Of a stretch of DNA of 64,000 nt, positions 2,145 to 52,117 are shown piece by piece. Origin of the DNA: Vicinamibacterales bacterium (lineage in GTDB: Bacteria > Acidobacteriota > Vicinamibacteria > Vicinamibacterales > UBA823). How positions within the stretch are numbered: position 1 is the stretch's first letter; the number at the start of each line of letters is the position of its first letter. Both the position numbers and the translations under genes were made by a program. Location: the NCBI GenBank assembly GCA_965197385.1, contig CBDANA010000009.1, positions 788,558 to 852,557 on the forward strand. Reading direction: 5' to 3'. The notes under the pieces were generated by a model. That model did not search any database. It saw only the letters and a list, made by a program, of their open reading frames with translations, and was not told the DNA's origin.

Positions 2145-2188
2145 TTGCAGACCACCGGAAGCGCTACACATCTGTCGGAGGGTGTCTG

Positions 2189-3892
2189 ATGCGGGGTACG
2201 AAGATCCTCGGCGGCTTCACGGTGAGCGTCATCGCGGCGCTCTACTTTCCCTTGCTCGCGGCGGTCGAATCGCCGGTGGCGGATGCCGCCATGCACGGCG
2301 ACACCGAGACGGTCCGGGCACTGCTGACGGACGGCGTCGATGCCAACACGGCGCAGGGCGACGGCATGACGGCGCTGCACTGGACGGCGGTTAACGGTGA
2401 TGTCGAGACGGCGCAGATGCTGCTCTACGCCGGAGCCAACGTGCGCGCCACGACCCGGCTTGGCACCTACACTTCGCTCCTGCTCGCGGCAGCCTCCGGT
2501 TCGGCCGAGGCCGTCACGACCCTCATTGCGAGCGGGGCCGACGTGAACGCGCTGGAATCGGGGCGCGGCCAGACGGCGCTCATGTTCGCCGCCGCGCTCG
2601 GCCGCGCGCAGGCGCTCGACGTGCTGCTGGCGCACGGCGCCGACACCACCCTGGCCACCACGGTGGTGGATGTCGTTGAGGTGGACAAGGAACTCAAGGC
2701 CGCCCGGAAGCAGCGCCAGGAGCGGGTCGATTCTGAGCTTAAGGCGGCGGTGGAAGCGGGCCTCGCAGCCAACCCGGACGTCATCCAACCGGAGCCCGAG
2801 GCCGAGCCACAGGACGAATCCGGCGGTCCCAATATCTTCAAGCGGTTCTTCGCCTGGATCGTTCTGGGTGGCGGCGGCGAAAACGATGAAAAGGGGCCCG
2901 AGCGACTCTCCTACGTACAGCTGGTCGGAAAACAGGGCGGTTTGACACCCCTGCATTTCGCCGCGCGCCAAGGCCATACCGACTCGGTCAAGAGCCTCCT
3001 GGCTGCCGGCGCCGACATCAATGCCCCGACCGGCGACGGGACGACACCGATCCTGATCTCGACGATCAACGGCCACTTCGACCTGTCGCAGTACCTGCTC
3101 GACCAGGGAGCGGACGCCACGATCGCCAGCGAAGCCGGTGCCACCCCGCTGTACGCGACGATCAACATGGAGTATGCGCCGCGCACGCTGCACCCGCAGC
3201 CGACCGCGTTTCGGCAGCAGCGGGTCACGTATCTGGAATTGATGGACGCGTTGCTGGATGCCGGCGTCGACGTGAACGCCAGGCTCTCAAAGAAGATCTG
3301 GTATTCGGGCTACAACTTCGATCTATCAAACGTGAACGAGACCGGCGGCACCGCCTTTTGGCGCGCGGCCTATGCGAGCGACATCGAGGCGATGCGTCTG
3401 CTCGTCGCCCGGGCCGCCGATCCCGACATCCGGACCCAGAAGACTCCCAGACGTCGTCGCCGTAGCGACCCGGACCCGAAGGACGACCCGTCTGGCTTGC
3501 GACCGGTCCCTGTGGGCGCGCCTGCCGTCACGCCACTCCAGGCGGCCGCCGGTGTCGGCTACGGATTCGGCTTTGCCGCCAACTCGCATCAGTTCCATCC
3601 CGGCGGCATGTTGCGCGCCGTCAGGTATCTCGTGGAGGAACTGGGCGCTGACGTGAACGCCCGCGACCATGACGGCTACACGGCGATGCACCACGCCGCC
3701 GCCAGGGGCGACAACGAGATGATCCAGTATCTGGTCTCGAAGGGGGCGGATGCGACGTTCGTCAGCCGACGAGGCCAGACGACGGTCGACATGGCGAACG
3801 GTCCGGTGCAGCGCATCGAGCCGTTCCCGGCGACCATCGCGCTCCTGGAGAGCCTGGGCGCCGTCAACAACCACAACTGCGTGTCCTGCTAG
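2189..3892 (+). CDS. secreted ankyrin-repeat protein
   Basis: N-terminal hydrophobic signal followed by many ANK repeats (GDGMTALHWTAVNGDVETAQMLLYAGANV, GLTPLHFAARQGHTDSVKSLLAAGADINA, GYTAMHHAAARGDNEMIQYLVSKGAD). Confidence 0.85.
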   Translation: MRGTKILGGFTVSVIAALYFPLLAAVESPVADAAMHGDTETVRALLTDGVDANTAQGDGMTALHWTAVNGDVETAQMLLYAGANVRATTRLGTYTSLLLAAASGSAEAVTTLIASGADVNALESGRGQTALMFAAALGRAQALDVLLAHGADTTLATTVVDVVEVDKELKAARKQRQERVDSELKAAVEAGLAANPDVIQPEPEAEPQDESGGPNIFKRFFAWIVLGGGGENDEKGPERLSYVQLVGKQGGLTPLHFAARQGHTDSVKSLLAAGADINAPTGDGTTPILISTINGHFDLSQYLLDQGADATIASEAGATPLYATINMEYAPRTLHPQPTAFRQQRVTYLELMDALLDAGVDVNARLSKKIWYSGYNFDLSNVNETGGTAFWRAAYASDIEAMRLLVARAADPDIRTQKTPRRRRRSDPDPKDDPSGLRPVPVGAPAVTPLQAAAGVGYGFGFAANSHQFHPGGMLRAVRYLVEELGADVNARDHDGYTAMHHAAARGDNEMIQYLVSKGADATFVSRRGQTTVDMANGPVQRIEPFPATIALLESLGAVNNHNCVSC

Positions 3893-3924
3893 CAGCCCTG
3901 CGCGCGAGGTTACGCATGGCTGGC
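3889..3924. repeat. mini palindrome starting with the CTAGCAGCCC repeat head
   Basis: CTAGCAGCCCTGCG...CGCATGGCTGGC form imperfectly complementary arms. The CTAG contains the ankyrin gene stop, and the right arm contains ATG 3916 of the next gene. Confidence 0.3.
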
Positions 3925-4581
3925 AACTTCCCGGTCGGCGGACGGAGCGTCTCGCGTCGCGAGCTGATCAAGCGCGCGCTCATAGCCGGCGCGGCGGCGA
4001 CCATGTCGGCCGAGACACTCGCGCACGCCGGGTCCGACCAGACGCCGTTCGACACGTTCGACACACTGTCACGGGCCGAAGCCGAAACCCTCCAGGCCAT
4101 CGTGGCCCGTCTCATCCCAACCGACGAGCGCGGCCCCGGCGCGAGCGAAGCCCGTGCGGAGCACTACATCGACCAGGCGCTGGCCGGCGCCCTGTCCGCG
4201 TCACGCCAGGCCTACGCCGACGGCCTGGCCGGCGTCGACGCCTACGCGCGAACGTCGAAAGGCGCCCTCTTCGCGTCGCTTCCAGCCGACGATCAGGACG
4301 CCGTCCTGCGCGAGATGGAGGCCAACACGGCAACCGGCTTCAGCCCGGACGCTTCGACCTTCTTCGAGCTGCTCCGCACCCATACGATCGAAGGCACCTT
4401 CGGCGATCCGTATTACGGCGGCAACACGAATTTCGTCGGGTGGGACCTGATTGGGTATCCAGGGGTCCGCGTGGTCGTCACGCCTCGCCACCAGCGGCTC
4501 GACATCGCGCCGCGGCCGGTCCACCGGTCGGCCTACGATTTTGGACGATTCGTGAAGGAAGTGCTGAACCGTGGCCGTTGA
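3916..4581 (+). CDS. gluconate 2-dehydrogenase subunit 3-family protein (Tat signal)
   Basis: Twin-arginine motif SRRELIKRALIAGAAA. Small subunit positioned directly upstream of, and overlapping, a GMC flavoprotein gene, which is the usual pairing. Confidence 0.7.
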   Translation: MAGNFPVGGRSVSRRELIKRALIAGAAATMSAETLAHAGSDQTPFDTFDTLSRAEAETLQAIVARLIPTDERGPGASEARAEHYIDQALAGALSASRQAYADGLAGVDAYARTSKGALFASLPADDQDAVLREMEANTATGFSPDASTFFELLRTHTIEGTFGDPYYGGNTNFVGWDLIGYPGVRVVVTPRHQRLDIAPRPVHRSAYDFGRFVKEVLNRGR

Positions 4582-6280
4582 CCTGCCGAAGACGGACGTG
4601 GTGATTGTCGGACTGGGTGCCGTCGGCGGCGTGGCCGCGTTGCCGCTCACGCGGGCTGGCCGCGATGTCATCGGGCTCGAAGCGGGCGCATGGATGCGCC
4701 GCCGCGACTTCGCCCCGGACGAGCTGCGCAACGGCGCCAGGGGATGGCCCCACGCGGTTCAGAAGGCGAACCGGGAGATTCCCGTGCACCGGCCGAACGC
4801 ATCAGCACCGGATTCCCCCCGGCTGACCGTCCATCCGATGATGAACGCGGTCGGCGGCACATCCCTCCACTATTGGGGCCAGAGCTGGCGCTTGAACCCC
4901 TGGGACTTCAAGGTCGTGAGCGAGACGACCCGGCGGTACGGCGCGGCGCGGATCCCCACTGGCTCGACGGTCGAAGACTGGCCGTTCGGGCTCAAGGAGC
5001 TCGAGCCGTTCTACGACCTGGTCGAGTACGAAGTGGGCGTCTCGGGTCAGGCCGGCAATATCAACGGCGCGATCGACCGGCGGGGCAACGTCTTCGAAGG
5101 CCCCCGCCGGCGTGACTATCCGATGCCGCCGCTCCGGGGCACGGGCTTCACCGAGCTCATGACGGACGCGGCACGAAGTCTCGACTGGCATCCGTTTCCC
5201 GGCCCGGCGGCCGTCAATTCCCAGCCGTACCAGAACCGAGCAGCGTGCGTCTATCACGGATTCTGCAGCCGCGGGGGCTGCCATGTCGACGCGAAGAGCT
5301 CCACCGCTGTGTCGACGATCCCGATGGCGCAGGAGACCGGGCACCTATCGGTCATCACGCATGCCCATGTCATCTCGGTCGGCGTCGATGGCAACGGTCG
5401 CGTCACCGGGGTGACCTATCGTAAAAACGGTGAAACCTACGTTCAGCCTGCCGAGGTGGTATTGCTCGGCACCTACACCTACGAGAACGTACGGACCCTC
5501 CTTCTCTCGATGTCGCGAGCCTACCCGGACGGCCTCTCGAACAACCACGGGCAGGTCGGCCGCCATTACTTCAGCCACAACATGGGGGCGGGCGTCCTCG
5601 CGCTCTTCCCGTCGAACCTGAACACGTGGTACGGCTTGCCCGCACAGGGCGTCGCGGTGGATGACTGGGCCGACGACAATTTCGACCACACCGATCTCGA
5701 CTTCATCGGGGGCGGCAACCTCTGGATCTACACCGAGCGACAACCGATCTCGGCGGCCAGGATGAACACATTTGGCCGCGCCCCGCGATGGGGCTCGGCC
5801 TGGAAACGGTTCGTCACGGAGAACGCCGACCGCTGGACCGGTACCTACATCCAGAAGACGACGCTGCCGTACGAAGACAACTACCTGGACCTGCATCCCA
5901 CCGTGAAGGACCCGCTCGGCTTCCCGGTCTGCCGGATCACCGCCGACTTCAAGGACAACGAGCGCAAAGTCGCCGCCTTCATGCAGGACAAGATGGTGCG
6001 GTGGTTCGAGGAGGCCGGCGCCATCGCCACGGTCCGGCAGTCCATCGGCACCATGCGGGCCACCCACGCCTACGGCGGGACGCGCATGGGTGACAATCCC
6101 GAGACGAACGTCGTCGACCGGTGGGGTTTCTCGCACGAGGCACCGAATCTGGGTGTTCTCGGCGCCTCGGTCATGGGCACGAGCGGCGCCCATAATCCCA
6201 CGTTGACGGCGCAGGCGCTCGCGTGGCGGACAGCCGACCATCTGGTCGAGAACTGGCGCGCGATCGCTAGCAGCCCGTAG
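4571..6280 (+). CDS. GMC-family FAD oxidoreductase (gluconate 2-dehydrogenase alpha-like)
   Basis: N-terminal Rossmann motif DVVIVGLGAVGG..LEAG, C-terminal GMC region HAYGGTRMG..VVD..GASVMGTSGAHNPTLT. The last residues and the stop lie inside repeat 6267-6345. Confidence 0.85.
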   Translation: MAVDLPKTDVVIVGLGAVGGVAALPLTRAGRDVIGLEAGAWMRRRDFAPDELRNGARGWPHAVQKANREIPVHRPNASAPDSPRLTVHPMMNAVGGTSLHYWGQSWRLNPWDFKVVSETTRRYGAARIPTGSTVEDWPFGLKELEPFYDLVEYEVGVSGQAGNINGAIDRRGNVFEGPRRRDYPMPPLRGTGFTELMTDAARSLDWHPFPGPAAVNSQPYQNRAACVYHGFCSRGGCHVDAKSSTAVSTIPMAQETGHLSVITHAHVISVGVDGNGRVTGVTYRKNGETYVQPAEVVLLGTYTYENVRTLLLSMSRAYPDGLSNNHGQVGRHYFSHNMGAGVLALFPSNLNTWYGLPAQGVAVDDWADDNFDHTDLDFIGGGNLWIYTERQPISAARMNTFGRAPRWGSAWKRFVTENADRWTGTYIQKTTLPYEDNYLDLHPTVKDPLGFPVCRITADFKDNERKVAAFMQDKMVRWFEEAGAIATVRQSIGTMRATHAYGGTRMGDNPETNVVDRWGFSHEAPNLGVLGASVMGTSGAHNPTLTAQALAWRTADHLVENWRAIASSP

Positions 6281-6345
6281 TGAAAATCCCGCGTGGCACC
6301 GAGGCAAGATCGACACGCAGCGTTACCCATGACGGCCGCCGCCCG
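6267..6345. repeat. short CTAG-anchored palindromic repeat (REPIN/MITE-like), copy A
   Basis: Left arm CTAGCAGCCCGTAGTGAAAATCC, degenerate right arm GTTACCCATGACGGCCGCCGC. Same head as the copies at 14698, 18401, 29589 and 38239. Confidence 0.45.
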
Positions 6346-14697: not shown

Positions 14698-14887
14698 CTA
14701 GCGGCCCGTGGTGAAAGTCCAGCGACGCACCGAGACCCCGCTGAACCAACGCCGCGGTCGCCCAGCGCAAGGCGCGACGAGGGAAAATACCGGCTGTATG
14801 TGGCCCATCTTGGACAATGCCCAGCGCCGCCGAAGCCGAGATGCAGCGCCGGTCGCATGCAGCTGGACTTTCACCACGGGCTGCTAG
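14698..14887. mobile_element. non-autonomous MITE-like element, copy B (CTAG...CTAG)
   Basis: TIRs are CTAGCGGCCCGTGGTGAAAGTCCAGC and GCTGGACTTTCACCACGGGCTGCTAG. The internal core is shared with the copies at 29589 and 38239. Confidence 0.7.
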
Positions 14888-18400: not shown

Positions 18401-18470
18401 CTAGCAGCCCATGGCGAAAGCTCAATGAGCCACCTGTAGCACGCCCAGTATATCGCCGGGCCAGGCACGA
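18401..18470. repeat. short CTAG-anchored palindromic repeat, copy G
   Basis: Left arm CTAGCAGCCCATGGCGAAAGCTC, degenerate complementary arm TATCGCCGGGCCAGGC. It sits between two gene ends. Confidence 0.45.
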
Positions 18471-18471
18471 G

Positions 18472-18738
18472 TCACGGCCGCACGGCGAGTTCCGCCGCGA
18501 AAAGCATCGTCCGGTCGTCATCCCGCACCGCCCATCGCATCAGCGTGCGCACATCCGGCTCCAGGTGCTGTCCGACGGCGGTCCAGCCATTCACGCGGAC
18601 CCGAATGCGGCGCGACAGGTCGAACCGATCCGGTGACACCAGGATCGTGAACCCGGCGATGCCGGTCGTCTCAGGCAGACCGTTCGACAGTGAAGCATCA
18701 TCCGTTCTCCGGAGCGGTCTCCTGCCCGCTCGGCTCAT
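18472..18738 (-). pseudogene. possible 5'-truncated gene remnant (C-terminal domain only)
   Basis: Only the last ~88 codons of track ORF 18472..19293 look protein-like (GFTILVSPDRFDLSRRIRVRVNGWTAVGQHLEPDVRTLMRW...). The rest is antisense to the amidohydrolase gene. Confidence 0.3.
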
Positions 18739-23963: not shown

Positions 23964-25266
23964 CTAGCAGGCTACTGAAAAAGTCCATGGAATGGGATCG
24001 ACAGATCGATCCCGGCGTACTCCCATGCTCCCAATATTGCTGAAGGGAGCCACCTCATGCGCGGACACGATGAGCAGACCCATCACATGTTCAGTTACCG
24101 GTCGCCGGAACAGCGCGTGCCGGCCGATCCTCCGCTCCGCGCGGTCCGCGCGCTGACGGATCACGCGCTGAAGACGATGTCGCGCAGGTTCGCCGGCCTG
24201 TACGCCAAGACGGGACGTCCGTCGATCCCGCCTGAGCCATTGTTGCGGGCCCTGTTGCTGCAGGTGCTGTACACGATCCGGAGCGAACGGCTGCTGCTGG
24301 AAGAGCTCAACGACAACCTGCTGTTCCGCTGGTTCGTCGGCTTGCATATGGACGACCCGGTCTGGCATCCCACGACGTTTACCAAGAATCGTGACCGGCT
24401 GCTGGCGGGGGATGGCGCGGCCGCCTTCGTTGATGCGGTCCAGGCCCACGCCCGGGCGGCCGGTCTGCTCTCGGACGAGCATTTCACGGTGGACGGGACG
24501 CAGTTGGAAGCCTGGGCCAGCCTGAAGAGCTTCCGATGCCGGGACGCCGCGCCGCGCGCGCCCCCCGATGACCCCGGGAATCCCACGGTCGACTTCCACG
24601 GCGAGCGGCGGCGCAACGACACGCACCAGTCGACGACTGATCCGGCGGCGATGCTGCATCGGAAGGGCCAAGGGAAGGAGGCGAAGCTGGCGTCTCTGGG
24701 CCACGTGCTGTTGGATAATCGGCAGGGGCTCGTCGCCAACGTCTGTGCGACCCACGCGACGGGGACCGCCGAACGCGAGGCGGCGGCACTGTTGCTGGAG
24801 GCCAGCGCGCCGCCGGGCAGCACGGTCGGAGCAGACAAGGGCTACGATGTGGCGAGCTTCGTCGCCGATGTCCGCGTCCGGGACGTCACGCCCCACGTGG
24901 CGCAGAAGGTCCGCTGGCGGGCGATTGATGGTCGGCCCACCCGGCATGCGGGTTCTCACGTGAGTCAGCGGAAACGAAAACTCGTGGAACAGGTCTTTGG
25001 GTGGAGGCAGACCGTCGGTGGTTTGCGCAAGCTCCGGCCTCGCGGCGTCCCACTCGTCGAGTGGCAGCTCACTTTCGCCGCCACGGCCTATAACTTGGTC
25101 CGCCTGCGGAATCTGGAGGCGACGTGTCCCTGCTCGCCGGCCGCGCGTGTCGCCGGCCCCCTCATCGGGGTCAGCGCACACCCGTGCGCACGGTCGTCGG
25201 GCGGTCGTCACCCGCATGATGCTTAAGAAAACAGCCCGATACCCGGGTTCTTCAGCAGCCTGCTAG
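23964..25266 (+). mobile_element. IS5-family insertion sequence, copy 1 (CTAG at both ends)
   Basis: 1.3 kb. IRs are CTAGCAGGCTACTGAAAAAGTCC and GGGTTCTTCAGCAGCCTGCTAG. Near-identical inverted copy at 49049-50351. Confidence 0.9.
24057..25226 (+). CDS. IS5-family DDE transposase
   Basis: 389 aa. N-terminal DUF772-like [43 protein letters not shown] and a DDE region (VDGTQLEA..., GADKGYD). Confidence 0.9.
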   Translation: MRGHDEQTHHMFSYRSPEQRVPADPPLRAVRALTDHALKTMSRRFAGLYAKTGRPSIPPEPLLRALLLQVLYTIRSERLLLEELNDNLLFRWFVGLHMDDPVWHPTTFTKNRDRLLAGDGAAAFVDAVQAHARAAGLLSDEHFTVDGTQLEAWASLKSFRCRDAAPRAPPDDPGNPTVDFHGERRRNDTHQSTTDPAAMLHRKGQGKEAKLASLGHVLLDNRQGLVANVCATHATGTAEREAAALLLEASAPPGSTVGADKGYDVASFVADVRVRDVTPHVAQKVRWRAIDGRPTRHAGSHVSQRKRKLVEQVFGWRQTVGGLRKLRPRGVPLVEWQLTFAATAYNLVRLRNLEATCPCSPAARVAGPLIGVSAHPCARSSGGRHPHDA

Positions 25267-25367: not shown

Positions 25368-26186
25368 ATGACGACTCGTAACCCTCAACCGACCCCACGT
25401 TTCGATCTGGGAAGCCAACCGGCCGTCAGCCGCCGGGCGTTTCTCAGCCTCGGGGCGGCGTTGACCGGCCCGACGGCACTCACCGCTCGCCGTCGGCCTG
25501 GCGCTGCGCCCGTGCCCAGTGCCGCGCTGCCCGACAGGCAGCCGGATTCTTCCGAGCAGCTTCGCGGTGTGCCGGCCACGCTGCTGTGCGATGCCTTGAC
25601 AAGGCTCGGCTTCGATCGGACGCGCTTCACGCTCTCACGGGAGATCCGCCCCACCGTGCGCACGCCGGGCACGATGATGGGCCCGGCGGTCACGACGAAA
25701 TACGAAACGGGGGCCGACGGAACGCTCGACGACATTCGCCGGTTCGTGTTCGATCCGGTGGACGCGGCGGGACCCGGGGCGGTCTGGGTCATCGAGAGCG
25801 GCACCGACGACGTCGTGAGCATGCTGGGCGAGCTGATCGCGGTGGCCTGCCGTCGGACCGGCCTGGCCGGAATCGTCACCGACGGCGGGTGCCGGGACAT
25901 TGACGCGATTGCCGCCATCGGCCTGCCGCTGTTCTCGAAGGGAACGGTCCTCTACGGTCCGGGCTCAATCATCCGCCCGGTCGCGGCCGACGTGCCGGTG
26001 AGATGCGGTGGCGTGGAGGTGCGGCCGGGGGACCTCGTGGCCGCGGATGCCGATGGCGCGCTCGTCGTGCCTCGCGAGGCGGTCGGCGACGTGGCGACGC
26101 TGGTCGCCGAGCTGCGGGCTAAGGAGGATCGGACGCGAGCGGCGCTCGCCCGCGGCGATACGCTACGAGACGCGTACGTGTTCTAG
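25368..26186 (+). CDS. RraA-family (RraA / HMG-aldolase-like) protein with an N-terminal Tat-type signal
   Basis: SRRAFLSLGAALTG twin-arginine signal followed by an RraA-like core (GELIAVACRRTGLAGIVTDGGCRD, VRPGDLVAADADGALVVP). Confidence 0.65.
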   Translation: MTTRNPQPTPRFDLGSQPAVSRRAFLSLGAALTGPTALTARRRPGAAPVPSAALPDRQPDSSEQLRGVPATLLCDALTRLGFDRTRFTLSREIRPTVRTPGTMMGPAVTTKYETGADGTLDDIRRFVFDPVDAAGPGAVWVIESGTDDVVSMLGELIAVACRRTGLAGIVTDGGCRDIDAIAAIGLPLFSKGTVLYGPGSIIRPVAADVPVRCGGVEVRPGDLVAADADGALVVPREAVGDVATLVAELRAKEDRTRAALARGDTLRDAYVF

Positions 26187-26222
26187 TGTCCGGTGGTGAA
26201 GGTCTCGACACATCGAGGGCTA
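26183..26222. repeat. solo/short copy of the CTAG repeat head between convergent genes
   Basis: CTAGTGTCCGGTGGTGAAGGTCTCGACACATCGAGGGCTA. Its two ends coincide with the TAG stops of the RraA-like gene (+) and the SSF gene (-). Confidence 0.4.
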
Positions 26223-29588: not shown

Positions 29589-29786
29589 CTAGCAGCCCGT
29601 GGTGAACGTCCCGCGTCGCATCGAAGCCCCTCTAAGGTTAAAACCGAAGCCGCGGTCGACCTGAGGAAGGTGCGAGGAGGAAGCATACCGGCAGTATTCG
29701 ACCCCGCTGATCAGAAGCCGAGCGCCGTCCCTGGCGGGATGCATCGGCGGGGGAATGCGGCCGTATTTATGACAAGGGCCACTAAG
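29589..29786. mobile_element. MITE-like element, copy C
   Basis: Left TIR CTAGCAGCCCGTGGTGAACGTCC, degenerate right end ...GACAAGGGCCACTAAG. Internal blocks are shared with copies B and F (…GAGGAGGAAGCATACCGGCAGTAT…, GGGATGCATCGGCGGGGGAATGCGGCC). Confidence 0.6.
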
Positions 29787-31834: not shown

Positions 31835-32011
31835 CTCGTGTCCTGTCCCAGTCGTTGGCAATATATCTGCCTGGCGGGGCTCCCGGCTTCAGCGGCGCTG
31901 GGCGTTGTCCACGATGGGTCACACATTCCCGATGGGCTCCCGGGTCGCGCCTTGCCAGCCTGGCGCCGCACTCCGGGATAGATGCCGCGAATCACTGGGA
32001 CAGGACACGAG
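31835..32011. repeat. 177-bp element bounded by a perfect 18-bp inverted repeat
   Basis: CTCGTGTCCTGTCCCAGT (31835-31852) is the exact reverse complement of ACTGGGACAGGACACGAG (31994-32011). It begins one nt after the upstream stop codon. Confidence 0.6.
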
Positions 32012-34335: not shown

Positions 34336-34524
34336 TCTACTTGTCCGAGCGCTGCCCCCGAGCATGTCGCTCGACGGGTATCTCACAGGCGTTCGGCTCG
34401 GAGGATCGTGGCCCACCGCCGCGCGTTCCTTCGATCGGATTGCTAATGACGATCGCCACGCGTCGCTATCCCCTGATCACGGAGGCACGATGACCTCCCG
34501 CCGACGCCTGGCAGCGGCAACACC

Positions 34525-34545
34525 GGACATTCACCACGGGCTACG
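34525..34545. repeat. degenerate right terminus of the CTAG repeat family, copy D
   Basis: GGACATTCACCACGGGCTACG, with CTAC in place of CTAG, 13 nt before ATG 34558. The left half of the element is not clearly recognisable. Confidence 0.4.
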
Positions 34546-34557
34546 CAAGGGCGCGTT

Positions 34558-35721
34558 ATGACGGATGCGCGCCCCGCGGCCGAACGGCGCATCCTCTCGG
34601 CGCTTCACGCCGAACCGGCGCGCATCCCGTTCGTGCTCGGACCCTGTGGCATCGGCCGGACCTCCACGCTCCTCCAACTCCGCGAGACGATCGGCTCCAG
34701 TCGGTGCCAGTACGTGGACGTCGAGCAGTCGGCGACGACGCCTGAGGGCTTCCTTACAGCCGTGACGAGTGCCTCGCCGTTCTCCGGCCCCGCTCACCCG
34801 AGGCCCCTCGAAGACGGTATTTCTGCGCGCGACGCGTTCCAGGCCGCGCTGGGATTTCTGGTCTCGGCCCGGACCGCGGGCGGCGAGCCGGCAACGTTCC
34901 TGCTGGACGAGGCACTCGAGCTTCGGACGTTCGACAGCTTTCCGGGGCTCCGGATCGTCCTCCAGGACCTCATGCAGGCTCTCCAGCACAGCGACAACCG
35001 GTTCGTCCTGACCACGCGCTACGTCAGCCGGGCTCACCGACTGCTGCGGGACGCCCCGTCGAAATATGAGGTTGTTCGTTTACCGTCGTTCTCGCCGGCC
35101 GAGGTCGCCGACGTGCTCTCGGACGACTACGCGCCTCAGGACACCCTGCGCCGCGCGGAGTTGGCCCGTACGGTGCACGCGCTGACTGACGGGCGGCCCG
35201 GGTATGTCCGGTTCCTCGACGACGCGATGCGGATCATGGGTGGTCGGGGCGCCGACGACCCGGTCGCCGCGCTGGCGGGGCAGATGGCGCGCGGCACGCC
35301 GCTGTACGGATGGTGTCGATTCTGTTACGAGCTGCGCCTCCACCGCGCTCGTGGCTACGGCGCCCTGAAAGCCATCCTGCAGGTCCTGGCGGAGGAAGAG
35401 CCGCTGACCCTCACGGCGATCGCCCAACGACTCCGTCGGACGCCCGGCTCGACGAAGGACTACTTGTCGTGGCTGGAAGACGTGGATCTGGTAATGGCGC
35501 GCCAGAAGCGCTACACCTTTCTGGATCCGCTGCTGCGTCTCTGGGTGCGACTCCACTGCCGGTCCGAGCCGCTGAACGATGAAGCCCTCGCCCGAGAGGT
35601 GCAGCGCTTCGCCCACAGCGTGTTGCCGAACGTCGAACCGGCACTGGCCCTCGTGACCGCTGATTCGCCACGTGACGTTGGCCGTCGCGACCGCGGCTGG
35701 AGCGTCGTCGAGATCGACTGA
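34558..35721 (+). CDS. P-loop ATPase (Arch_ATPase/DUF234-like, C-terminal wHTH)
   Basis: Walker A VLGPCGIGRTS, Walker B-like FLLDEALEL, and a C-terminal winged-helix-like region (LTLTAIAQRLRRTPGSTKDYLSWLEDVDLV). Confidence 0.6.
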   Translation: MTDARPAAERRILSALHAEPARIPFVLGPCGIGRTSTLLQLRETIGSSRCQYVDVEQSATTPEGFLTAVTSASPFSGPAHPRPLEDGISARDAFQAALGFLVSARTAGGEPATFLLDEALELRTFDSFPGLRIVLQDLMQALQHSDNRFVLTTRYVSRAHRLLRDAPSKYEVVRLPSFSPAEVADVLSDDYAPQDTLRRAELARTVHALTDGRPGYVRFLDDAMRIMGGRGADDPVAALAGQMARGTPLYGWCRFCYELRLHRARGYGALKAILQVLAEEEPLTLTAIAQRLRRTPGSTKDYLSWLEDVDLVMARQKRYTFLDPLLRLWVRLHCRSEPLNDEALAREVQRFAHSVLPNVEPALALVTADSPRDVGRRDRGWSVVEID

Positions 35722-35726: not shown

Positions 35727-35794
35727 GTCAGCCGCCCGTCGTGAACGTCGCGCATCGCCCCGAGGCGTCACGTCGGGTTCTCACCACGGGCTGC
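35727..35794. repeat. short inverted pair of the CTAG-family repeat head (REPIN-like hairpin), copy E
   Basis: GTCAGCCGCCCGTCGTGAACGTC ... GTTCTCACCACGGGCTGC form complementary arms between convergent genes. The right arm encodes the last codons and the stop of rnc. Confidence 0.6.
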
Positions 35795-36743
35795 CCCCGC
35801 GTCGTAGTCGCTGCAGCGCCAGGGCGGCGGCGTGCTGCTCCGCCTCTTTCTTGCTGCGGCCCTTCGCCGTCGCAACCACCTCCTGGCCGACCGTCACGCC
35901 GATCTCGAAGATCTTCGCATGGTCCGGGCCACGTTCGCCGATCACGTGGTACGCCGGCAGGGGCTGCACGTGGGCCTGCGCCCACTCCTGCAGCGCCGAC
36001 TTGGCATCGGCATCGAATCCGGCCGGGCGCCGGCCCATCTGGACCTCGCCTAGGCACTCGAGGAATTCCCGTTCGATGAATGCCCGGGCCGCGTCGATAC
36101 CGCCATCCAGGTAGATCGCGGCGATCACCGCTTCATAGGCGTCGGCCAGCAACCCGGACTTCGACCGCCCCCCAGAGCGCTCCTCACCCTTACCGAGCAC
36201 CAGGTGCGCCCCCAGCCCCAGCGCACGCGCACGCTCGGAAAGCGTGACCGCCGACACGAGGGTCGCCTTCAGCTTCGACTTGCCGCCTTCGTCCTGGTCC
36301 GGGCATTCGCGGTACAGCAGATCGGCGATGACGAAGCCCAGCACGGCATCTCCGAGAAACTCCATCGACTCGTTGTCGACGACACCACCGCTCGGATCCT
36401 CGTGCACCCGCGACCGATGCGTCAGCGCGTCCTCCAGCACCCCCCGGTTCGTGAAGCGATAGCCGAGCGCTGCCTCGAGACGCGCCTCGTCAGCCGGCGG
36501 CCCGTCGCCCGCACCGGCGGCGGCTCGTGACGCGTCGAGAATCTCGCGCGCCTGCGCCACGTCACCAGCCGCAACCATGACGAGTACCGTCAACTGTGGA
36601 TCCCCGCGCAGTGAGGCCAACCGTCCGAGCCGGTCGGTCGAGATGACCGCCTGGATGCCGTGACTGCGCAGCAGCGACTGCACCACGCTCGCCTCGCCTT
36701 CGGAGGCGGTCGCCAACGCGATGGCCAGGTCGTCCGTGCTCAC
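35781..36743 (-). CDS. rnc: ribonuclease III with an ~90-aa N-terminal extension
   Basis: RNase III signature NESMEFLGDAVLG and a C-terminal dsRBD (DAKSALQEWAQ..GPDHAKIF..GRSKKEAEQHAA). The GTG start overlaps the upstream TGA (GTGA). Confidence 0.85.
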   Translation of the reverse strand: MSTDDLAIALATASEGEASVVQSLLRSHGIQAVISTDRLGRLASLRGDPQLTVLVMVAAGDVAQAREILDASRAAAGAGDGPPADEARLEAALGYRFTNRGVLEDALTHRSRVHEDPSGGVVDNESMEFLGDAVLGFVIADLLYRECPDQDEGGKSKLKATLVSAVTLSERARALGLGAHLVLGKGEERSGGRSKSGLLADAYEAVIAAIYLDGGIDAARAFIEREFLECLGEVQMGRRPAGFDADAKSALQEWAQAHVQPLPAYHVIGERGPDHAKIFEIGVTVGQEVVATAKGRSKKEAEQHAAALALQRLRRGGSPW

Positions 36744-38157
36744 GCCGGCGCGACCGCCACTGGTCCGTGTGAGTCGGCCGCGGGAGGCAGGCCCCCCACC
36801 TTGACGAGAATCATCGTCATGTCGTCGTGCTGCTCGGCGCCGTCCACGAACGCATCGACCTCGAGCAGGACGTGCTGCTGCAATTCTTGTGACGAGTGGT
36901 GGCCGTGCTGCTCCAGCGCCTGGCTCAGGCGGGCCTCGCCGAAGAAATCGGACGCGCCGTTCATCGCTTCGGTCACGCCGTCGGTATAGAGCGCAAACAC
37001 ATCGCCCGGCCCGACCTGGAGCGTGCTCTCCTGGAGCAGTGCCTGGAACTTCTCGGCGATCCCCTCGAACTGCAGCCCGAGCGGGCACCCGAGATGCGAG
37101 TGAAAATGTCGCTGATGCGAATCTGGATGGCGGTGCTGACCTTGGCGCTCGAACCGGTAGCCCAGTTCGTGTAATCGAAGAACGTGACCCAGTCGAGGGT
37201 ATACCCGGCGTCCCGCGCCGACGGCACCGTCTGGACCGCCGCCTCCGACCCGAACGCTCGGCCGACCTCCAGCTCCACAATCTGACCGTCTGCCGTGACA
37301 ACGGCGGTGCGACCCAGAGTAATCCCGGTCGTCTCGAGTAGCCGCTCCAGCGTCTGTCCGGCGACCGGCAGGTCCACGACGACGGCGTAGTCCGCCATGG
37401 GATCGACCGGCAGCCCGACCGCCCGCGCGACCAGATCGGTCCGATCGGTCCCAGGAAGGGCAAACGCGAGCAGCCCGCCGAACCCGGTCGGCTGGATCCA
37501 GGCCGGCAGCGCCTCGGGCGGCGATAGATGCCGCCACGGGCCGACGACGAGGGGCACAGCGTCCGCCGCAGGCGAACCCGACCGGGACACCAGCGCGAGT
37601 GAAACGCCTAGGTGACGTCCCACCGTGGCGGTGAGCTTCCCGGCCAGCACCTCCTGTGCTGCCGCTTGACCGCCTCGCCGCTCCAGCTCGCCCGCTGACG
37701 TCTCGGCCAGAACGACCGCCTCCTCGATCAGATCGTCGAATCCGCTGCGCACGAAGAACGAGCTGACGTTCAGGAATATCAGCACGCCGGCGAGCAGAAA
37801 GAACGCCATCACGAGCAACACCGGCACGAAGCCGATGAAGACGTACGACACGATCAGCTTTCGTCGGACGCGTCATAGCAATCGACGCCGGATCGCGCCG
37901 AAGGCCCGGGCGAACACCACGAGGCCTACGACCAGCAGGATCGCGCTGGCGAGGCCATCAACAACGCGGAAGACGGACCAATTCGACAGGGCGCCGAGCG
38001 GTGCCAGAACCTTGACCACGCCCGCCGCCAGCACGGCGCGGCCGGACCAGGTACGCACCAGCCAGGTCACCCCGCGGCGGATCGTATGCGCCGACAGGCG
38101 CGGCTCCGCGCTGGCTTGCTCATGTGGGAGCGGGTCGCGGAGTAAATCTCGGACCAT
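36740..38157 (-). pseudogene. membrane sensor / PP2C (SpoIIE-type) phosphatase, disrupted
   Basis: In-frame TGA: ...FGAIRRRLL-TGA-RVRRKLIVSYVFIGFVPVLLV. A frame change occurs near 37090. Only the C-terminal half of a SpoIIE domain remains (PLGLQFEG...GPGDVFALYTDGVTEA...DDMTMILVKV). Confidence 0.7.
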
Positions 38158-38238
38158 GCAGTTTGAAAATGAAATATATCAGATGTATCGTAACCTGCCG
38201 TCGCTGGAGTCCGCGCCCCGCGACCAACGCACGATCTG

Positions 38239-38417
38239 CTAGCCGCCCGTGGTGAACGTCTGGTCTTGCAGCGGGGGCCCCCGACCATGGAAGCTGCGGT
38301 CCGCCCGAGCAAGGCGCGGCGAGGGAGAATGTTGGGAATACTTGAACGAGAAGCCACGCCGCCAGTGGGGATGCATCGCCGGCCGAATGCCGCCAGACGT
38401 CCACCACGGCCGGCGAG
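38239..38417. mobile_element. MITE-like element, copy F
   Basis: TIRs are CTAGCCGCCCGTGGTGAACGTCTGG and CCAGACGTCCACCACGGCCGGCGAG. The core GCAAGGCGCGGCGAGGGAGAAT is shared with copy B. It ends 9 nt before GTG 38427. Confidence 0.7.
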
Positions 38418-41097: not shown

Positions 41098-41174
<77 letters not shown>

Positions 41175-41256: not shown

Positions 41257-42306
41257 TGAATCGTACCGGGTTTCTCGGAGACCGAATTCGTTGAATCAGG
41301 CCACCTCAGCCTGCTCATAGTACTGCGCCTCGAACTCTGCTGGTGGAATGTCCCCGAGCGGCCCCAACAGTCGTCGTGTGTTGAACCAGTCCACCCACGT
41401 CAAGGTGGCGAACTCCACGGCCTCGAGGGTGCGCCACGAGCCCTTCCGTCGAATCACCTCCGTCTTGTACAAGCCGATCACCGATTCGGCGAGGGCATTG
41501 TCATAGGCATCGCCTTGGCTGCCGACCGACGGCGCGATGCCGGCGTCCACGAGGCGATTCGTGTACCGCATCGAGAGATATTGCGACCCGGCATCACTGT
41601 GATGTACGAGGCCGGTGAGGGCGTCGCCCCGGCGGGCGTAGATCGCCTGCTCCAACGCATCCAGCACAAAGTCCGTGCGCATGGAGGCCGACACCCGCCA
41701 GCCCACAATGCGGCGCGCAAACACGTCGATGACGACCGCGACGTAGACAAAGCCGCCCCAGGTTGCGACGTACGTGAAATCGGAGACCCAGAGCTGATTC
41801 GGACGGGTGGCCACGAATCGGCGGTCAACGAGGTCCACCGGGCGACCGCCCTCACCTGCGGGGGTCGTGGTGACCCAGGCCCGGCCCCGGACGGCCCCGG
41901 CAAGGCCCATCGCGCGCATCAGGCGCGCCACGGTGCAGCGCGCCACGCGGACGCCGTCCCGCCGCAGCTGCTTCCAGACTTTCCGGGGGCCGTAGACCTG
42001 CTGGTGCGCGTCATAGACCCGCTGAATCTCGACGCGGAGCTGATCGTCGCGCTGCGCCCGTGCGGACCGGCGCGTCGGATGTGTCCGCTGGTGCCGATGG
42101 CGATGATACGTCGACGGGGCGATCGGCAGCACGGCGCAGATCGGCTCGACCCCGAACACGGCGCGATGGTCGGCGATGAACTGGACCATCGTGGCTACGT
42201 CCTCCGGCGGTCGAGCTCCGCCTGGGCGAAATACGCGAACGCTTTCCGCAGGATCTCATTCGCCCGCTTCAGCTCACGGACCTCGCGCTCCAGCTCCTTC
42301 AACCGC
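41257..42306 (-). mobile_element. IS3-family element, 5'-truncated
   Basis: orfB is intact, but only the last ~35 codons of orfA remain ([35 protein letters not shown]). No left IR is present. The right end is placed at TGAATCG... and is approximate. Confidence 0.75.
41296..42189 (-). CDS. IS3-family transposase OrfB (integrase core)
   Basis: Motifs PNQLWVSDFTYV, HHSDAGSQY and NALAESVIGLYKTE are the typical rve/DDE core. Confidence 0.9.
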   Translation of the reverse strand: MVQFIADHRAVFGVEPICAVLPIAPSTYHRHRHQRTHPTRRSARAQRDDQLRVEIQRVYDAHQQVYGPRKVWKQLRRDGVRVARCTVARLMRAMGLAGAVRGRAWVTTTPAGEGGRPVDLVDRRFVATRPNQLWVSDFTYVATWGGFVYVAVVIDVFARRIVGWRVSASMRTDFVLDALEQAIYARRGDALTGLVHHSDAGSQYLSMRYTNRLVDAGIAPSVGSQGDAYDNALAESVIGLYKTEVIRRKGSWRTLEAVEFATLTWVDWFNTRRLLGPLGDIPPAEFEAQYYEQAEVA

Positions 42307-42543
42307 ACGTGTCAGCGGCACGCTGGATCCTGGCACGACTCGCGCAGCGGAGCTGGTGATCTACGTTGCGAGAGCGAGGCCGATGCGACCGCGGCTAACA
42401 GCGATCAGCGCTCAGCTCGAGCCGCGCTTCATCGTGGAGCGCGTTCGGGCTGGTACTGGGAATGACACCGAGCTCCACGCGGCCCTGGCCGCGGCGGCAT
42501 CGCTTCCTCACACCGCCCGCAGCGCGATGATCTGGTCTACCGG

Positions 42544-46451: not shown

Positions 46452-46510
46452 GAGTTGAATAGTACACCGCGGCGGGCTCCGCGCATAGCGCTCCGCGCGG
46501 GCTGCTAGAC

Positions 46511-48037
46511 TCAGCCCAGGCGCCGCCAGCGGCGGCCGTCCTTAGCCAGGAGTACGTCGGCGTCTGCCGGGCCCTGGGACCCGGCCGCGTAGTTCGGGAA
46601 GTCGCGGGCTGGCAGCGCCCCCCACACATCGAGAATCGGCGTCACGATGCGCCACCCCGCCTCGACGTTGTCCGCTCGCTGAAACAGTGTGGCGTCCCCC
46701 TTCATCGCGTCGTAGAGCAGCGTCTCGTAGCCGGTGGATCGACGAGAGCCGAAATAGTCGGCGTAGCTGAAGTCCATGTCGACGCCGCCGATCTGGAGGA
46801 CCGCCGACGGCACCTTCGCACCAAAATGCAACGAGATCGCCTCGTCGGGCTGAATCCGCATGACCAGGCGGTTCGGGGCCAGCTGGTCCACGGCGGTCTT
46901 CCGGAACATCATGAACGGTGCCTGCTTGAACTGGATAGCCACCTCGGTTACTCGCGCCGCGAGGCGCTTGCCGGTGCGCAGGTAGAACGGCACGCCGGCC
47001 CAGCGCCAGTTGTCCACCATCAGCTTCAAGGCGACGTAGGTGTCGGTGTTCGATTCGGGATCGACCTGGGTCTCCTCGCGGTACCCGACGACCTGCGCCC
47101 CGTTGGCCCCCGTGCCCCGTCCGTACTGCCCACGCACCGTCTGCGTGAGGACCTCCTCTGGCCCGATCGGCTGCAGCGCCTCGATCACCTTGCCTTTCTC
47201 GTCGCGCACCGCCTCCGCCTCGAACGACGAGGGCGGCTCCATGGCCGTCAACGCCAGCAGCTGGAACAGGTGGTTCGGCACCATGTCGCGCAGGGCGCCC
47301 GCCCCCTCGTAGTAGCGGCCCCGACCCTCCACGCCGAGCTGCTCCGCCACGGTGATCTGCACGTGATCGACATAGCGCCGGTTCCAGATCGGCTCAAAAA
47401 TGCCGTTGGCGAAGCGAAAGACGAGGATGTTCTGGACGGTGTCTTTCCCCAGATAGTGGTCAATCCGGTAGATCTGCTGTTCCTGCAGGACGCCGCGCAG
47501 CGCGCCGTTCAGGGCCCGCGCCGATGCGAGATCCTGTCCGAACGGCTTCTCGATGACGACCCGCCGCCATCCCGAATCCGACTCGCTCGCCAAACCGGCC
47601 GCGCCGAGGCCGGTGACGATCGACGCGAAAAACGTCGGCGGCGTGGCGAGATAGAACAGCCGATTGCCACCTGTTTTGCGCTCCGCGTCGATGCCGTCGA
47701 GCCGCTGCGCCAGGCGCGTCAAAGCCTCCATGTGCCCCAGCTTGCCCTGGACGTAGTGCGCCCTGGCCGCCAGCCACTCCCACAGGTCGCTATCGAGGTC
47801 GCCGTCGATGTGCTGCGCGACCTGCCCGCGCAGGTGCGTCCGGAACGCCTCGTCGTCGTAGTCCCGTCCACCGAACCCGACGATGGCGAATGCATCCGAC
47901 AGCAGCTTGTACCGCGCCAGGTGGTAGAGGGCCGGCACCAGCTTCCGCATCGTCAGATCACCGCCGGCGCCGAAGATCACCATCGTATTCGGTCCGGCCG
48001 GCGTCGCGTCGCGTTCGCGTGCAGTCTCAGTCGCCAT
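46511..48037 (-). CDS. zwf: glucose-6-phosphate dehydrogenase
   Basis: Motifs [28 protein letters not shown]. Confidence 0.9.
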
Positions 48038-49048: not shown

Positions 49049-50351
49049 CTAGCAGGCTGCTGAAGAACCCGGGTATCGGGCTGTTTTCTTAAGCATCATG
49101 CGGGTAACGACCGCCCGACGACCGTGCGCACGGGTGTGCGCTGACCCCGATGAGGGGGCCGGCGACACGCGCGGCCGGCGAGCAGGGACACGTCGCCTCC
49201 AGATTCCGCAGGCGGACCAAGTTATAGGCCGTGGCGGCGAAAGTGAGCTGCCACTCGACGAGTGGGACGCCGCGAGGCCGGAGCTTGCGCAAACCACCGA
49301 CGGTCTGCCTCCACCCAAAGACCTGTTCCACGAGTTTTCGTTTCCGCTGACTCACGTGAGAACCCGCATGCCGGGTGGGCCGACCATCAATCGCCCGCCA
49401 GCGGACCTTCTGCGCCACGTGGGGCGTGACGTCCCGGACGCGGACATCGGCGACGAAGCTCGCCACATCGTAGCCCTTGTCTGCTCCGACCGTGCTGCCC
49501 GGCGGCGCGCTGGCCTCCAGCAACAGTGCCGCCGCCTCGCGTTCGGCGGTCCCCGTCGCGTGGGTCGCACAGACGTTGGCGACGAGCCCCTGCCGATTAT
49601 CCAACAGCACGTGGCCCAGAGACGCCAGCTTCGCCTCCTTCCCTTGGCCCTTCCGATGCAGCATCGCCGCCGGATCAGTCGTCGACTGGTGCGTGTCGTT
49701 GCGCCGCCGCTCGCCGTGGAAGTCGACCGTGGGATTCCCGGGGTCATCGGGGGGCGCGCGCGGCGCGGCGTCCCGGCATCGGAAGCTCTTCAGGCTGGCC
49801 CAGGCTTCCAACTGCGTCCCGTCCACCGTGAAATGCTCGTCCGAGAGCAGACCGGCCGCCCGGGCGTGGGCCTGGACCGCATCAACGAAGGCGGCCGCGC
49901 CATCCCCCGCCAGCAGCCGGTCACGATTCTTGGTAAACGTCGTGGGATGCCAGACCGGGTCGTCCATATGCAAGCCGACGAACCAGCGGAACAGCAGGTT
50001 GTCGTTGAGCTCTTCCAGCAGCAGCCGTTCGCTCCGGATCGTGTACAGCACCTGCAGCAACAGGGCCCGCAACAATGGCTCAGGCGGGATCGACGGACGT
50101 CCCGTCTTGGCGTACAGGCCGGCGAACCTGCGCGACATCGTCTTCAGCGCGTGATCCGTCAGCGCGCGGACCGCGCGGAGCGGAGGATCGGCCGGCACGC
50201 GCTGTTCCGGCGACCGGTAACTGAACATGTGATGGGTCTGCTCATCGTGTCCGCGCATGAGGTGGCTCCCTTCAGCAATATTGGGAGCATGGGAGTACGC
50301 CGGGATCGATCTGTCGATCCCATTCCATGGACTTTTTCAGCAGCCTGCTAG
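49049..50351 (-). mobile_element. IS5-family insertion sequence, copy 2 (inverted relative to copy 1)
   Basis: Same 1.3-kb element with CTAG at both ends. I saw only two differences from copy 1: one in the IR (GCTGCTG vs GCTACTG) and one His/Tyr codon. Confidence 0.9.
49089..50258 (-). CDS. IS5-family DDE transposase
   Basis: 389 aa, identical to 24057..25226 except ...GGRYPHDA vs ...GGRHPHDA. Confidence 0.9.
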
Positions 50352-52117
50352 AGACTCTTCAGCGCGTCTGCGACCAGCCGTTCCAGCGTTGCGAGGCCGG
50401 CCGCCGCGTCGTCCCCGAGGTGGACGCGCAGCGCTCGCCGCTGCCGCTCGGCCAAGACATCAAAATCCCCTCGCGCCTGCGCCGCCTTGACGACACCGAA
50501 CGAATAGCGCCGCCCCGGAATCGGCAGGTTCCGCGCGTCGTCCGCCGTGACCTGCAGGAACACGCCGCTGTTCGGCCCACCCTTGTACGCCTGGCCGGTC
50601 GAGTGCAAGAAGCGCGGACCGAAGCCGACGCAGGTGGCGACACGCCTCGTGTCGCGGATCGTGTGTCGCATCCTGGACAGCGACGCCTCGTTCGCTTCGT
50701 TCATGTCCACGTAGGCGAGCAACGCGCAGTAGTCACCAGCCTGCAACCGCTTCAGGTGCGTCCCGAGGACCGCCTCCGAGGAGGTTGCGCCACCCGCCTC
50801 CAGCGCCGAACGGTTCACGGGGTCCGCGAACCACTCCAGCCCGTCGGCCTCAACGAACGGAGCTTCCGGCGGCAGACTGCCCTGGCGCTCGAACTGATCG
50901 GTCAGCGCTCGGGTCGCGACCTTGCTCGCTTCGACATCCGGTTGGTCGAACGGATTGATGCCGAGCACCGCGCCCGCGACCGCCGTCGCGATCTCCCATC
51001 GGAAGAACTCACCGGCCAGGTCGTCGTGATCCCGGACCCTAATCCGGATCACCGGATGCCCGGCCGCTTCGATGGCATCCACCGCCTCGTCCTGGGCCGT
51101 CGTGTCATCCGACGCGAGGCGAATCGACACGAATAGCCGGTCGTCGCCGTACACCCCGGGCGCGGTCAGAGACTCGCGGTCCACCGGAATCAGCCCCACC
51201 CCCTTCTTGCCGGTCGATTCGGCAATCAGCTGCTCCAGCCAGGCCCCCAGGGTTCGCACCCCCTCCGACGCGGCAAGCGTCACCTTGTCGCGACCGGCCC
51301 GGCCCGCCACGCCCAGTGCGAGACCCAGGAGCACTCCCGGATTCCCGGTGACCGGCACGTCGGGACCGCACGCCATCACCATCTCGGCCGCCCGCGCGAG
51401 CAGCCGCTCGACACTCAGCCCCATGACGGCGGCCGGCACCAGCCCGAAGTCGGACAGCGCCGAGTAGCGCCCGCCGATGCTCGGGACCCCTGGTGAGACC
51501 GACTGGAATCGACGTCGCCGCGCGATCGCTTCCAGCTTCGAGCCCGGATCCGTGATGGCGAGAAAGTGCTCGCCCGCCCGATCGCCGAGCCGCCGTGCGA
51601 CCTGCTCGTAGAAGTACTCGTAAAAGATGTTTGGCTCGAGCGTGTTGCCCGACTTGCTGGCGACGATGAACAAACAGCGCTCCAGATCCACCGCGGCCTG
51701 CACCCGCGCGACTTGCGCCGGGTCCGTGGAATCCAGCACGTGGAGGCGGGGTGCTCCGTCCACCGGCCCGAAGCTGCGGCTCAGGACGTCCGGACACAGG
51801 CTGGACCCGCCCATGCCGAGCACGACGGCGTCGGTGAAGTCACCGCGCGTGGCCAGACTCGCCAGCGCCCTGAAGTGGCCTGTTCGCGCCTGCTGGGCCG
51901 CCACGATGTCGAGCCAGCCCAGCCAGCCGGACTCGCCCGTCCCGGTCCACAGCGTCGCGTCCTTGCCCCACAGCCGTCCGATGCGGCCCTCCTGCTGCCA
52001 CACCGCCGCTTCGCGTTGCAGTGCCGCCGCGAACGGCTCGGCACCCGAGATGGTTTGACCCGCGATCGCCGTGTCGCTCATCCGGTCATTGGTCATTGGT
52101 CGTTGGGCATTGGGCAT
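50348..52117 (-). CDS. pgi: glucose-6-phosphate isomerase (PGI of the type often fused to transaldolase)
   Basis: Motifs VVLGMGGSSLCP, FIVASKSGNTLEP, GGRYS. The start is ambiguous (several ATGs inside the heptamer repeat). The stop TAG lies in the CTAG at the IS boundary. Confidence 0.8.
   Translation of the reverse strand: MPNAQRPMTNDRMSDTAIAGQTISGAEPFAAALQREAAVWQQEGRIGRLWGKDATLWTGTGESGWLGWLDIVAAQQARTGHFRALASLATRGDFTDAVVLGMGGSSLCPDVLSRSFGPVDGAPRLHVLDSTDPAQVARVQAAVDLERCLFIVASKSGNTLEPNIFYEYFYEQVARRLGDRAGEHFLAITDPGSKLEAIARRRRFQSVSPGVPSIGGRYSALSDFGLVPAAVMGLSVERLLARAAEMVMACGPDVPVTGNPGVLLGLALGVAGRAGRDKVTLAASEGVRTLGAWLEQLIAESTGKKGVGLIPVDRESLTAPGVYGDDRLFVSIRLASDDTTAQDEAVDAIEAAGHPVIRIRVRDHDDLAGEFFRWEIATAVAGAVLGINPFDQPDVEASKVATRALTDQFERQGSLPPEAPFVEADGLEWFADPVNRSALEAGGATSSEAVLGTHLKRLQAGDYCALLAYVDMNEANEASLSRMRHTIRDTRRVATCVGFGPRFLHSTGQAYKGGPNSGVFLQVTADDARNLPIPGRRYSFGVVKAAQARGDFDVLAERQRRALRVHLGDDAAAGLATLERLVADALKSL

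Follow-up and report, generated by a model that had tools for sequence, protein, structure and literature searches.

At positions 35728-35797 of the 64-kb window (the whole stretch of DNA analyzed here), two copies of a short repeat face each other between convergent genes, and further pieces of the same repeat lie scattered near the ends of other genes. This raises the question of whether these short forms are functional palindromes of the REP/REPIN type, as a preliminary description had proposed, or the debris of a mobile element. We searched the window for the head of the repeat (CTAGNNGCCCGTGGTGAA, with up to three mismatches) and obtained 10 matches relative to 0.63 expected (16-fold); none of 100 shuffled sequences reached this number. 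The shared head motif is therefore real. The GC-content along the window is 64-71%, and that of the genome is given as 67%. We observed that the head CAGCCCGTGGTGAAAGTC is the terminal inverted repeat of an insertion sequence (IS) of the IS5/IS1182 superfamily. The short palindromes are very probably relics of a MITE with IS5-type ends that inserts at CTAG.

Three long copies of the repeat share, in addition to the head, ~150 nt of interior sequence. The reference copy (14698..14887, + strand, 190 bp) lies between convergent genes with both ends intact and CTAG on both sides. The second copy (38239..38417, + strand, 179 bp) presents a decayed right foot (CGAG) and ends 10 nt before the start of a Cys/Met PLP-enzyme gene (38427), and the third (29589..29785, + strand, ~197 bp) presents a decayed right arm (TTTATGACAAGGGCCACTAA). 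For a non-circular test, we built a profile from 19 copies, all from other genomes, and searched it against the window. The long copies were recovered with E-values from 6e-33 to 8e-21, and the copies of 166-190 bp can be classified as MITEs, i.e., as non-autonomous IS derivatives. A conserved small ORF within the MITE was considered and rejected by eye since indels break the frame. The profile also aligned short pieces to the MITE model, and the earlier suggestion that they share ancestry with the ~190-bp copies is supported.

The 70-bp unit at 35728-35797 (+ strand) is composed of two facing arms whose feet have both decayed, and reads TCAG-CC-GCCCGTCGTGAA…TTCTCACCACGGGC-TG-CCCC. The left end (35728-35766, + strand) contains the foot TCAG, the core GCCCGTCGTGAA at 35734-35745 and the subterminal sequence CGCATCGCCCCGAGGC; the right end (~35775-35797) contains the foot CCCC and the core as the reverse complement GCCCGTGGTGAG at 35780-35791. 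The profile aligned at model positions 3-39 and 147-163 (left arm, E = 0.017 window-wide), and what is left of the MITE in this unit amounts to 39 nt on the left and ~23 nt on the right, in which otherwise near-invariant positions of the repeat carry point changes. This is probably an internally deleted, immobile copy, from which ~105-120 bp of interior would have been lost and in which both mutated ends would have been retained. The unit is located between the gene 34558-35721 (+) and the RNase III gene rnc (35781..36470, - strand, start approximate), and its right arm encodes the last codons and the stop of the latter (C-terminus …RRGGSPW*; AGC CCG TGG TGA). The gene rnc, whose product cuts double-stranded RNA, terminates inside a transposon-derived hairpin. 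The RNase III frame is also open upstream through a DUF2007 domain, forming a 560-aa ORF (35781-37463, - strand) that represents either a fusion or a pair of genes sharing the same frame.

Short inverted pairs had been described at five sites, and this holds for 35728-35797, the only listed short form with two ends (both mutated), but not for the other four. The sites at 6267, 18401 and 26183 are solo forms for which no right arm could be aligned with the profile, and the site at 3889 is a 10-mer. The one-armed forms are unequal in length and cover 24-40 model positions on the left side. The best preserved is a left-end fragment at 6267..6307 (+ strand; model 1-40, 37/40 positions identical to the consensus, E = 3.6e-7), within which the GMC-oxidoreductase gene 4571-6280 ends (…AIASSP*; GCT AGC AGC CCG TAG). 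A left terminal repeat at 18401..18424 (+ strand) matches model positions 1-24 only, with two core mismatches (E = 1.7). It sits between divergent genes, in front of a - strand gene for a secreted protein with a signal peptide (MTKRFLAVAVVVL…). The relic is 27 nt upstream of the true start of this gene at 18374, and the gene presents a GGAGG Shine-Dalgarno sequence. A sigma-70-like promoter match directed toward this gene (GTGACT-17-TATACT, 18447-18475, - strand) lies just past the relic; such matches occurred at near-chance frequency in the scan. The fragment at 26183..26222 (+ strand; model 2-40, E = 2.8) carries the variant head CTAGTGTCCGGTGGTGAAGG and fills the 33-nt gap between a convergent RraA-like gene, whose stop is the TAG of the CTAG at 26183, and an SSF symporter gene. 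As relics, the sites at 18401 and 26183 are individually weak given their window-wide E-values, and they are credible only because each begins on one of the 42 CTAG sites of the window, with a chance estimate of ~0.02 per such match.

The smallest listed form is the bare 10-mer CTAGCAGCCC at 3889..3898 (+ strand), in which the TAG terminates the ankyrin-repeat gene 2189-3892. The profile built from the 19 foreign copies did not detect it and no arm could be demonstrated there, such that it may represent a minimal relic or a chance match. We found two sites in addition to those listed previously. The first is a second solitary 10-mer at 46499..46508 (- strand; GGGCTGCTAG on the + strand), located 2 nt past the stop of the gene 46511-48037 (-). 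The second is a solo left-end fragment at 34517..34547 (- strand; model 5-31, E = 0.029, foot GTAG), which belongs to the 5' region of the gene 34558-35721, its distance upstream from the ATG being 10 nt. At 6267, 18401, 26183 and 34547, the left end alone would have been left after decay, and at 3889 and 46499 at most the outer 10 nt would be left. The short forms are most likely immobile relics without a selected function.

We scanned 185,579 species-representative genomes with a 22-nt head query (CTAGNNGCCCGTGGTGAANGTC) and identified at least 116 loci. Based on record titles, the loci listed comprise 77 Acidobacteriota (mostly Vicinamibacterales), 18 Planctomycetota, 11 "delta-proteobacteria"/Myxococcota and 10 others; the hosts of the head family, among the matches listed, are thus uncultured bacteria from soil and sediment that belong to several phyla. 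The head found no match in the viral contigs scanned, blastn of the MITE against plasmids gave no match, and a literature search on the motif strings, on IS1182/MITE/CTAG and on MITEs of Acidobacteria returned nothing specific. Among the matches listed, a head and the next head in inverted orientation are most often 140-180 bp apart (42 of 99 pairs). Forty-one inverted pairs were 150-300 bp apart, as expected for MITEs, four were less than 150 bp apart, and 11 spanned 1.42-1.53 kb, each enclosing a single ORF of 452-467 aa. At least 36 of the 193 heads were solo despite 1.7 kb of room for a partner. The two size classes proposed in the preliminary description did not hold up: there is no discrete 70-bp class among the matches listed, and the shorter forms are merely scattered. 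Two-armed derivatives of 46-135 bp do occur elsewhere (loci L105, L042, L071, L114, L028, L036 and L076). The interior of the short derivative is common to L071 and L114, which come from two MAGs, and some short derivatives may accordingly still have spread.

The long inverted pairs point to the autonomous partner of the MITEs. Among the matches listed, 11-12 elements of ~1.42-1.53 kb in other genomes carry CTAG-CAGCCCGTGGTGAAAGTC at both ends. The enclosed ORF (e.g., 1542-2930 of locus L023, 462 aa) matches the Pfam domains DUF772 (63 bits) and DDE_Tnp_1 (30.4 bits), and the best NCBIfam match of this type of transposase is IS1182 (E = 8e-46). Its scores reach the curated cut-off neither for the IS1182 model NF033551 (156.9 bits vs 270) nor for the IS5_4 model (89.1 bits vs 140), such that the enzyme is placed in the IS5/IS1182 superfamily but in no particular subgroup. 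The partner transposases are 54-99% identical to each other among MAGs. A homologue on plasmid pLB1 (AB244976), annotated "IS5 family transposase", shows 50% protein identity, and its element is bounded by CTAA-CAGGCCGTTGACGAAGTCGG … CCGACTTCGTCACCGCGCTG-CTAA. We considered whether the 1.45-kb elements could be ISs inserted into a pre-existing palindrome; this was rejected because neither half of the core is present in them (in L023, the match is confined to model positions 1-40). In the same locus, positions 1426-5896 contain tandem copies of the IS5-type IS (1432-2962 and 3176-4706) followed by an IS630-family IS that is inserted exactly in the terminal CTAG duplication (4706-4712), a hot spot common to both families.

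The outer tetranucleotides clarify the role of the CTAG foot. Among the matches listed, 59 elements have two ends: 39 of them are flanked by CTAG/CTAG and two by the non-palindromic CTAA/CTAA, and the remainder differ from CTAG at one or both ends, mostly by a single base. Because the non-palindromic CTAA/CTAA was found in two of these elements and again around the pLB1 element, together with the 39 cases of CTAG/CTAG, the foot is identified as the 4-bp YTAR direct target duplication of an IS5-type element and not, as had been supposed, as a recognition foot of the RAYT type. We infer that the 166-190 bp MITEs would be moved in trans by the partner DDE transposase through cut-and-paste.

No cognate transposase was found within the 64-kb window, but the window does contain a resident IS5-family element in two copies. 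Copy 1 (23964..25266, + strand) presents a CTAG/CTAG duplication and the end CAGGCTACTGAAAAAGTCC, and its transposase (24057-25226, 389 aa) matches NF033581 well above the cut-off (246.6 bits vs 140). Copy 2 (49049..50351, - strand) has a right-hand CTAG that forms the TAG stop of a 589-aa gene (50348-52117, - strand). The two copies are mutually inverted, and their counterparts in Vicinamibacterales MAGs (L109 and L093) show 86-89% identity to them, which suggests that the window probably comes from a Vicinamibacterales-like acidobacterium; exact look-ups of three window proteins found no record. Between the ends of the resident IS (CAGGCT[A/G]CTGAA…) and the head, 12 of 19 positions are identical, and the similarity of the resident transposase to the cognate enzyme is limited to 126 aa of the N-terminal domain (36% identity); we therefore judged this IS unlikely to be the mobilizer. 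The choice between a RAYT and an IS5-like mobilizer had been left open, and the evidence picks an IS5-like DDE enzyme different from the resident IS. The window also contains an IS3-family element (41296-42465) with an ALIL frameshift pseudoknot (42115-42237, - strand), and a tRNA gene with a CAT anticodon loop (41098-41171) is located ~125 nt from it.

How did the copies come to lie at gene ends? The tetranucleotide CTAG is scarce in this window: it occurs 42 times relative to ~193 occurrences expected from base composition (~4.6-fold depleted), and counts of 163-621 were obtained for the other palindromic tetramers of equal base composition. Of the 42 CTAG sites, 12-13 (nearly a third) are feet of elements. 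CTAG also carries TAG on both strands, and since it is rare, its usable targets are often stop codons, which accounts for the bias toward gene ends. Four genes or ORFs of the window take their stop from the duplicated CTAG, namely the genes 2189-3892 and 25368-26186, the ORF 37835-38242 (through the left CTAG of the MITE 38239-38417) and, via the resident IS, the gene 50348-52117 (-). Among the matches listed, 27 of 181 heads give a TAG stop to an upstream coding-like ORF, and four further heads do so with the TGA inside GGTGAA. Two genes of the window, rnc and the GMC-oxidoreductase gene, end inside arms, and their last codons and stop are thus derived from transposon ends. Insertion into a CTAG at a stop would regenerate the stop with little harm, and copies would then pile up at gene ends.

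Most short pieces abut stop codons, as first noted. They had all been placed at 3' ends or between convergent genes. This is correct for 35728 and 26183, which lie between convergent genes, as well as for 3889 and 6267, each located between the end of one gene and the start of the next, but not for 18401, which lies in a 5' region. Among the matches listed, 28 of the 44 gene termini adjoining full MITEs are 3' ends, and the orientation of full MITEs relative to neighboring genes presents no bias (15 sense and 13 antisense at 3' ends). Target choice combined with tolerance of stop-regenerating insertions is the simplest account of these observations, and selection for terminators is unneeded. 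This suggests that a CTAG-targeting element in a CTAG-poor genome of high GC-content can be funneled onto stops, yielding a gene-end distribution without any terminator selection. It follows for annotation that such sites should be labeled as MITE or IS remnants rather than as REPs or terminators.

The interior of the long copies is the part that we did not expect. This core of ~100 nt, for which Rfam gave no matching family, is absent from the autonomous ISs and is not derived from IS ends, since only model positions 1-40 match in L023 and the other full ISs match in their terminal repeats only. Across 22 copies, 94.7% of the cells of the interior pair and compensatory changes affect 22 of 45 pairs; none of 500 shuffles reached the observed values and slid controls were at most 50% paired. 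Extending the set to 44 cores, including Planctomycetota and IS630-type copies, 89% of the cells pair and 114 cells are compensatory relative to 39.5 in shuffles. All predicted pairs are nested around a central hairpin, such that the whole element would form one long imperfect hairpin. The consensus fold is more stable on the forward strand than on the reverse strand (-55.9 vs -39.5 kcal/mol). The predicted fold also contains 66 G·U cells vs 12 A·C cells, an asymmetry that is suggestive only because RNAalifold favors G·U when choosing pairs. We also observed that several subfamilies (L034, L044, L046, L050, L072, L112 and others) come from different phyla and have interiors that barely align by BLAST, and that they keep a length of 165-167 bp and the motif order CAAGG.GCGA, hairpin, GAGGA..GCAACG.

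The same core is found within other ends. In the window, a copy at 31835..32011 (- strand; model 25-109, E = 3e-6) is enclosed by other, perfect arms (CTCGTGTCCTGTCCCAGT) of the IS630 type. Among the matches listed, the core occurs without the head in ~10 loci (e.g., L071 167-331, L098 12-177, L091 760-935, L026 7628-7792 and L063 5553-5717), where it is enclosed by perfect arms of 15-29 bp with another sequence. Several of these arms (CTAGTG[T/A/G]CC[T/C]GT…) correspond to the termini of IS630-family ISs (L023 4710-5894 and L029 4180-5295), whose transposases are well above the cut-off of NF033545 (273.8 and 239.5 bits vs 100) and contain Pfam DDE_3. A third type of end around the core presents CTAAG feet. 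The core is therefore found in MITEs that belong to two unrelated transposase families, in MAGs that are Acidobacteriota, Planctomycetota or Myxococcota-like. These results raise the possibility of selection on the core (…GGCAAGGCGCGAcGA…hairpin…GAGGAGCAACGC…) as a structured module of RNA or ssDNA that is specific to one strand; it would be a mobile non-coding cargo that has repeatedly gained any mobilizable ends, and the short forms would be its empty shells. We regard this as a tentative and rather unlikely interpretation. The concerted change of both halves could also stem from hairpin-templated repair, or from a protein that binds with two-fold symmetry. If functional, the core would constitute an unusual mobile structured RNA. 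The strong covariation inside the long copies shows that this family is more than neutral debris.

A function had also been proposed for the short forms themselves, which would be retained as RNA hairpins acting as bidirectional terminators or as 3'-end stabilizers of the flanking genes. The location of 35728 and 26183 between convergent genes, the predominance of 3' ends among gene termini adjoining the elements listed (28 of 44) and the predicted hairpin at 35728 (-30 kcal/mol on the + strand and -38.7 kcal/mol on the - strand) are compatible with this proposal. However, the RNA folding z-scores are unremarkable (-0.85 and -1.7 at 35728; -0.3 to +1.2 at the other short sites), shuffled sequences fold as well as any of the short forms, and the palindromic character of these forms is weak. 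The terminator scan of positions 1-40000 revealed no U-tract terminator overlapping any copy. At the gathering threshold, Rfam identified only ALIL and one tRNA in the window, and a search of the reference MITE at E-values up to 10 returned only a miRNA noise match. Moreover, four of the five listed forms are one-armed, the sites at 18401 and 34547 lie upstream of genes, the bias toward 3' ends is accounted for by the CTAG/TAG target, and the elements show no orientation bias relative to neighboring genes. Retention of the short forms as RNA hairpins, including a co-opted role at 35728 or 26183, is thus improbable, although a residual RNA role for the hairpin at 35728 is still conceivable given the covariation in the long copies.

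The minimal forms (3889, 46499 and perhaps 26183) might instead represent excision footprints or repair scars of a departed MITE. The 10-mer CTAGCAGCCC is found solitary twice relative to an estimate of ~0.1 expected by chance, and both solitary copies are at stop codons. Nonetheless, no alignable remnant of a second arm was found, no established footprint model is known for the IS group concerned, and chance or truncation through an adjacent deletion fits the bare 10-mers equally well. We give little credence to this explanation. Decay of IS5-type MITEs remains our preferred origin of the short forms.

It is very improbable that the repeats are REP/REPIN elements mobilized by a RAYT (Y1, IS200/IS605-like) reading the CTAG foot: the inverted pair at 35728-35797, the outer tetranucleotide and the intergenic location give a superficial likeness, but the 22-nt head has no internal inverted repeat and the predicted folds pair arm with arm only, inverted heads enclose a gene for a DDE transposase in 11-12 elements among the matches listed, CTAG acts as a direct target duplication (including the CTAA/CTAA cases), and a Y1/RAYT gene flanked by the motif was found neither among the 20 ORFs flanking the copies of the window nor among the genes between heads in the matches listed. 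REP units are palindromes of 20-40 bp tagged by GTAG or CGTC and associated with a Y1 transposase. Like REP, REPIN and BIME sequences, the present repeat is short and intergenic, has a fixed outer tetranucleotide and in some cases forms inverted pairs. In contrast, its arms are not palindromic, it lacks the GTAG or CGTC tag (the tag being CTAG, and CTAA in two elements), this tag is a target duplication and the partner is a DDE enzyme. The analogy drawn in the preliminary description is therefore abandoned.

Among other small repeats, the Correia elements of Neisseria (CREE/NEMIS) are small, carry terminal inverted repeats, sit at gene ends with a TA-containing target and produce hairpin transcripts. 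They exist as full-length and internally deleted forms in two well-defined size classes, and their processing by RNase III and their promoter and terminator effects are documented. The repeats described here resemble them by their small size, terminal inverted repeats, short TA-containing target and predicted hairpin folding of transcripts, by the presence of full-length and internally deleted forms with the same ends and by the location at gene ends. They differ in that the short forms are heterogeneous, mostly one-armed and known from sequence alone, and in that the autonomous partner IS is identified. MITEs of the IS630 family (Tc1/mariner-Stowaway-like), of which RUP of pneumococcus is an example, are represented by the copy at 31835-32011 and by those of several loci, which have ends TA-GTGNCCTGT… and sit in CTAG. 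The difference is that these copies contain the same core as the IS5-type MITEs, and a limited literature search found no report of a core common to both types.

The closest counterparts are the MITEs derived from IS5/IS1182. As in these, the ends are identical to those of an autonomous IS with a DUF772 and DDE_Tnp_1 transposase, the target duplication is a 4-bp YTAR (CTAG or CTAA), the copies are 166-190 bp long, non-coding, multi-copy and intergenic, and truncated and internally deleted relics occur. The family departs from this class by a transposase that scores under the IS1182 and IS5 subgroup cut-offs, by a host range of several phyla and by an interior conserved beyond what is expected of a MITE. 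Such pairs of IS and MITE in bacteria are the counterpart of the PIF/Harbinger-Tourist pairs. The elements of this window are IS5-type MITEs and their debris, a known class, and constitute ordinary mobile DNA rather than REP or REPIN sequences.
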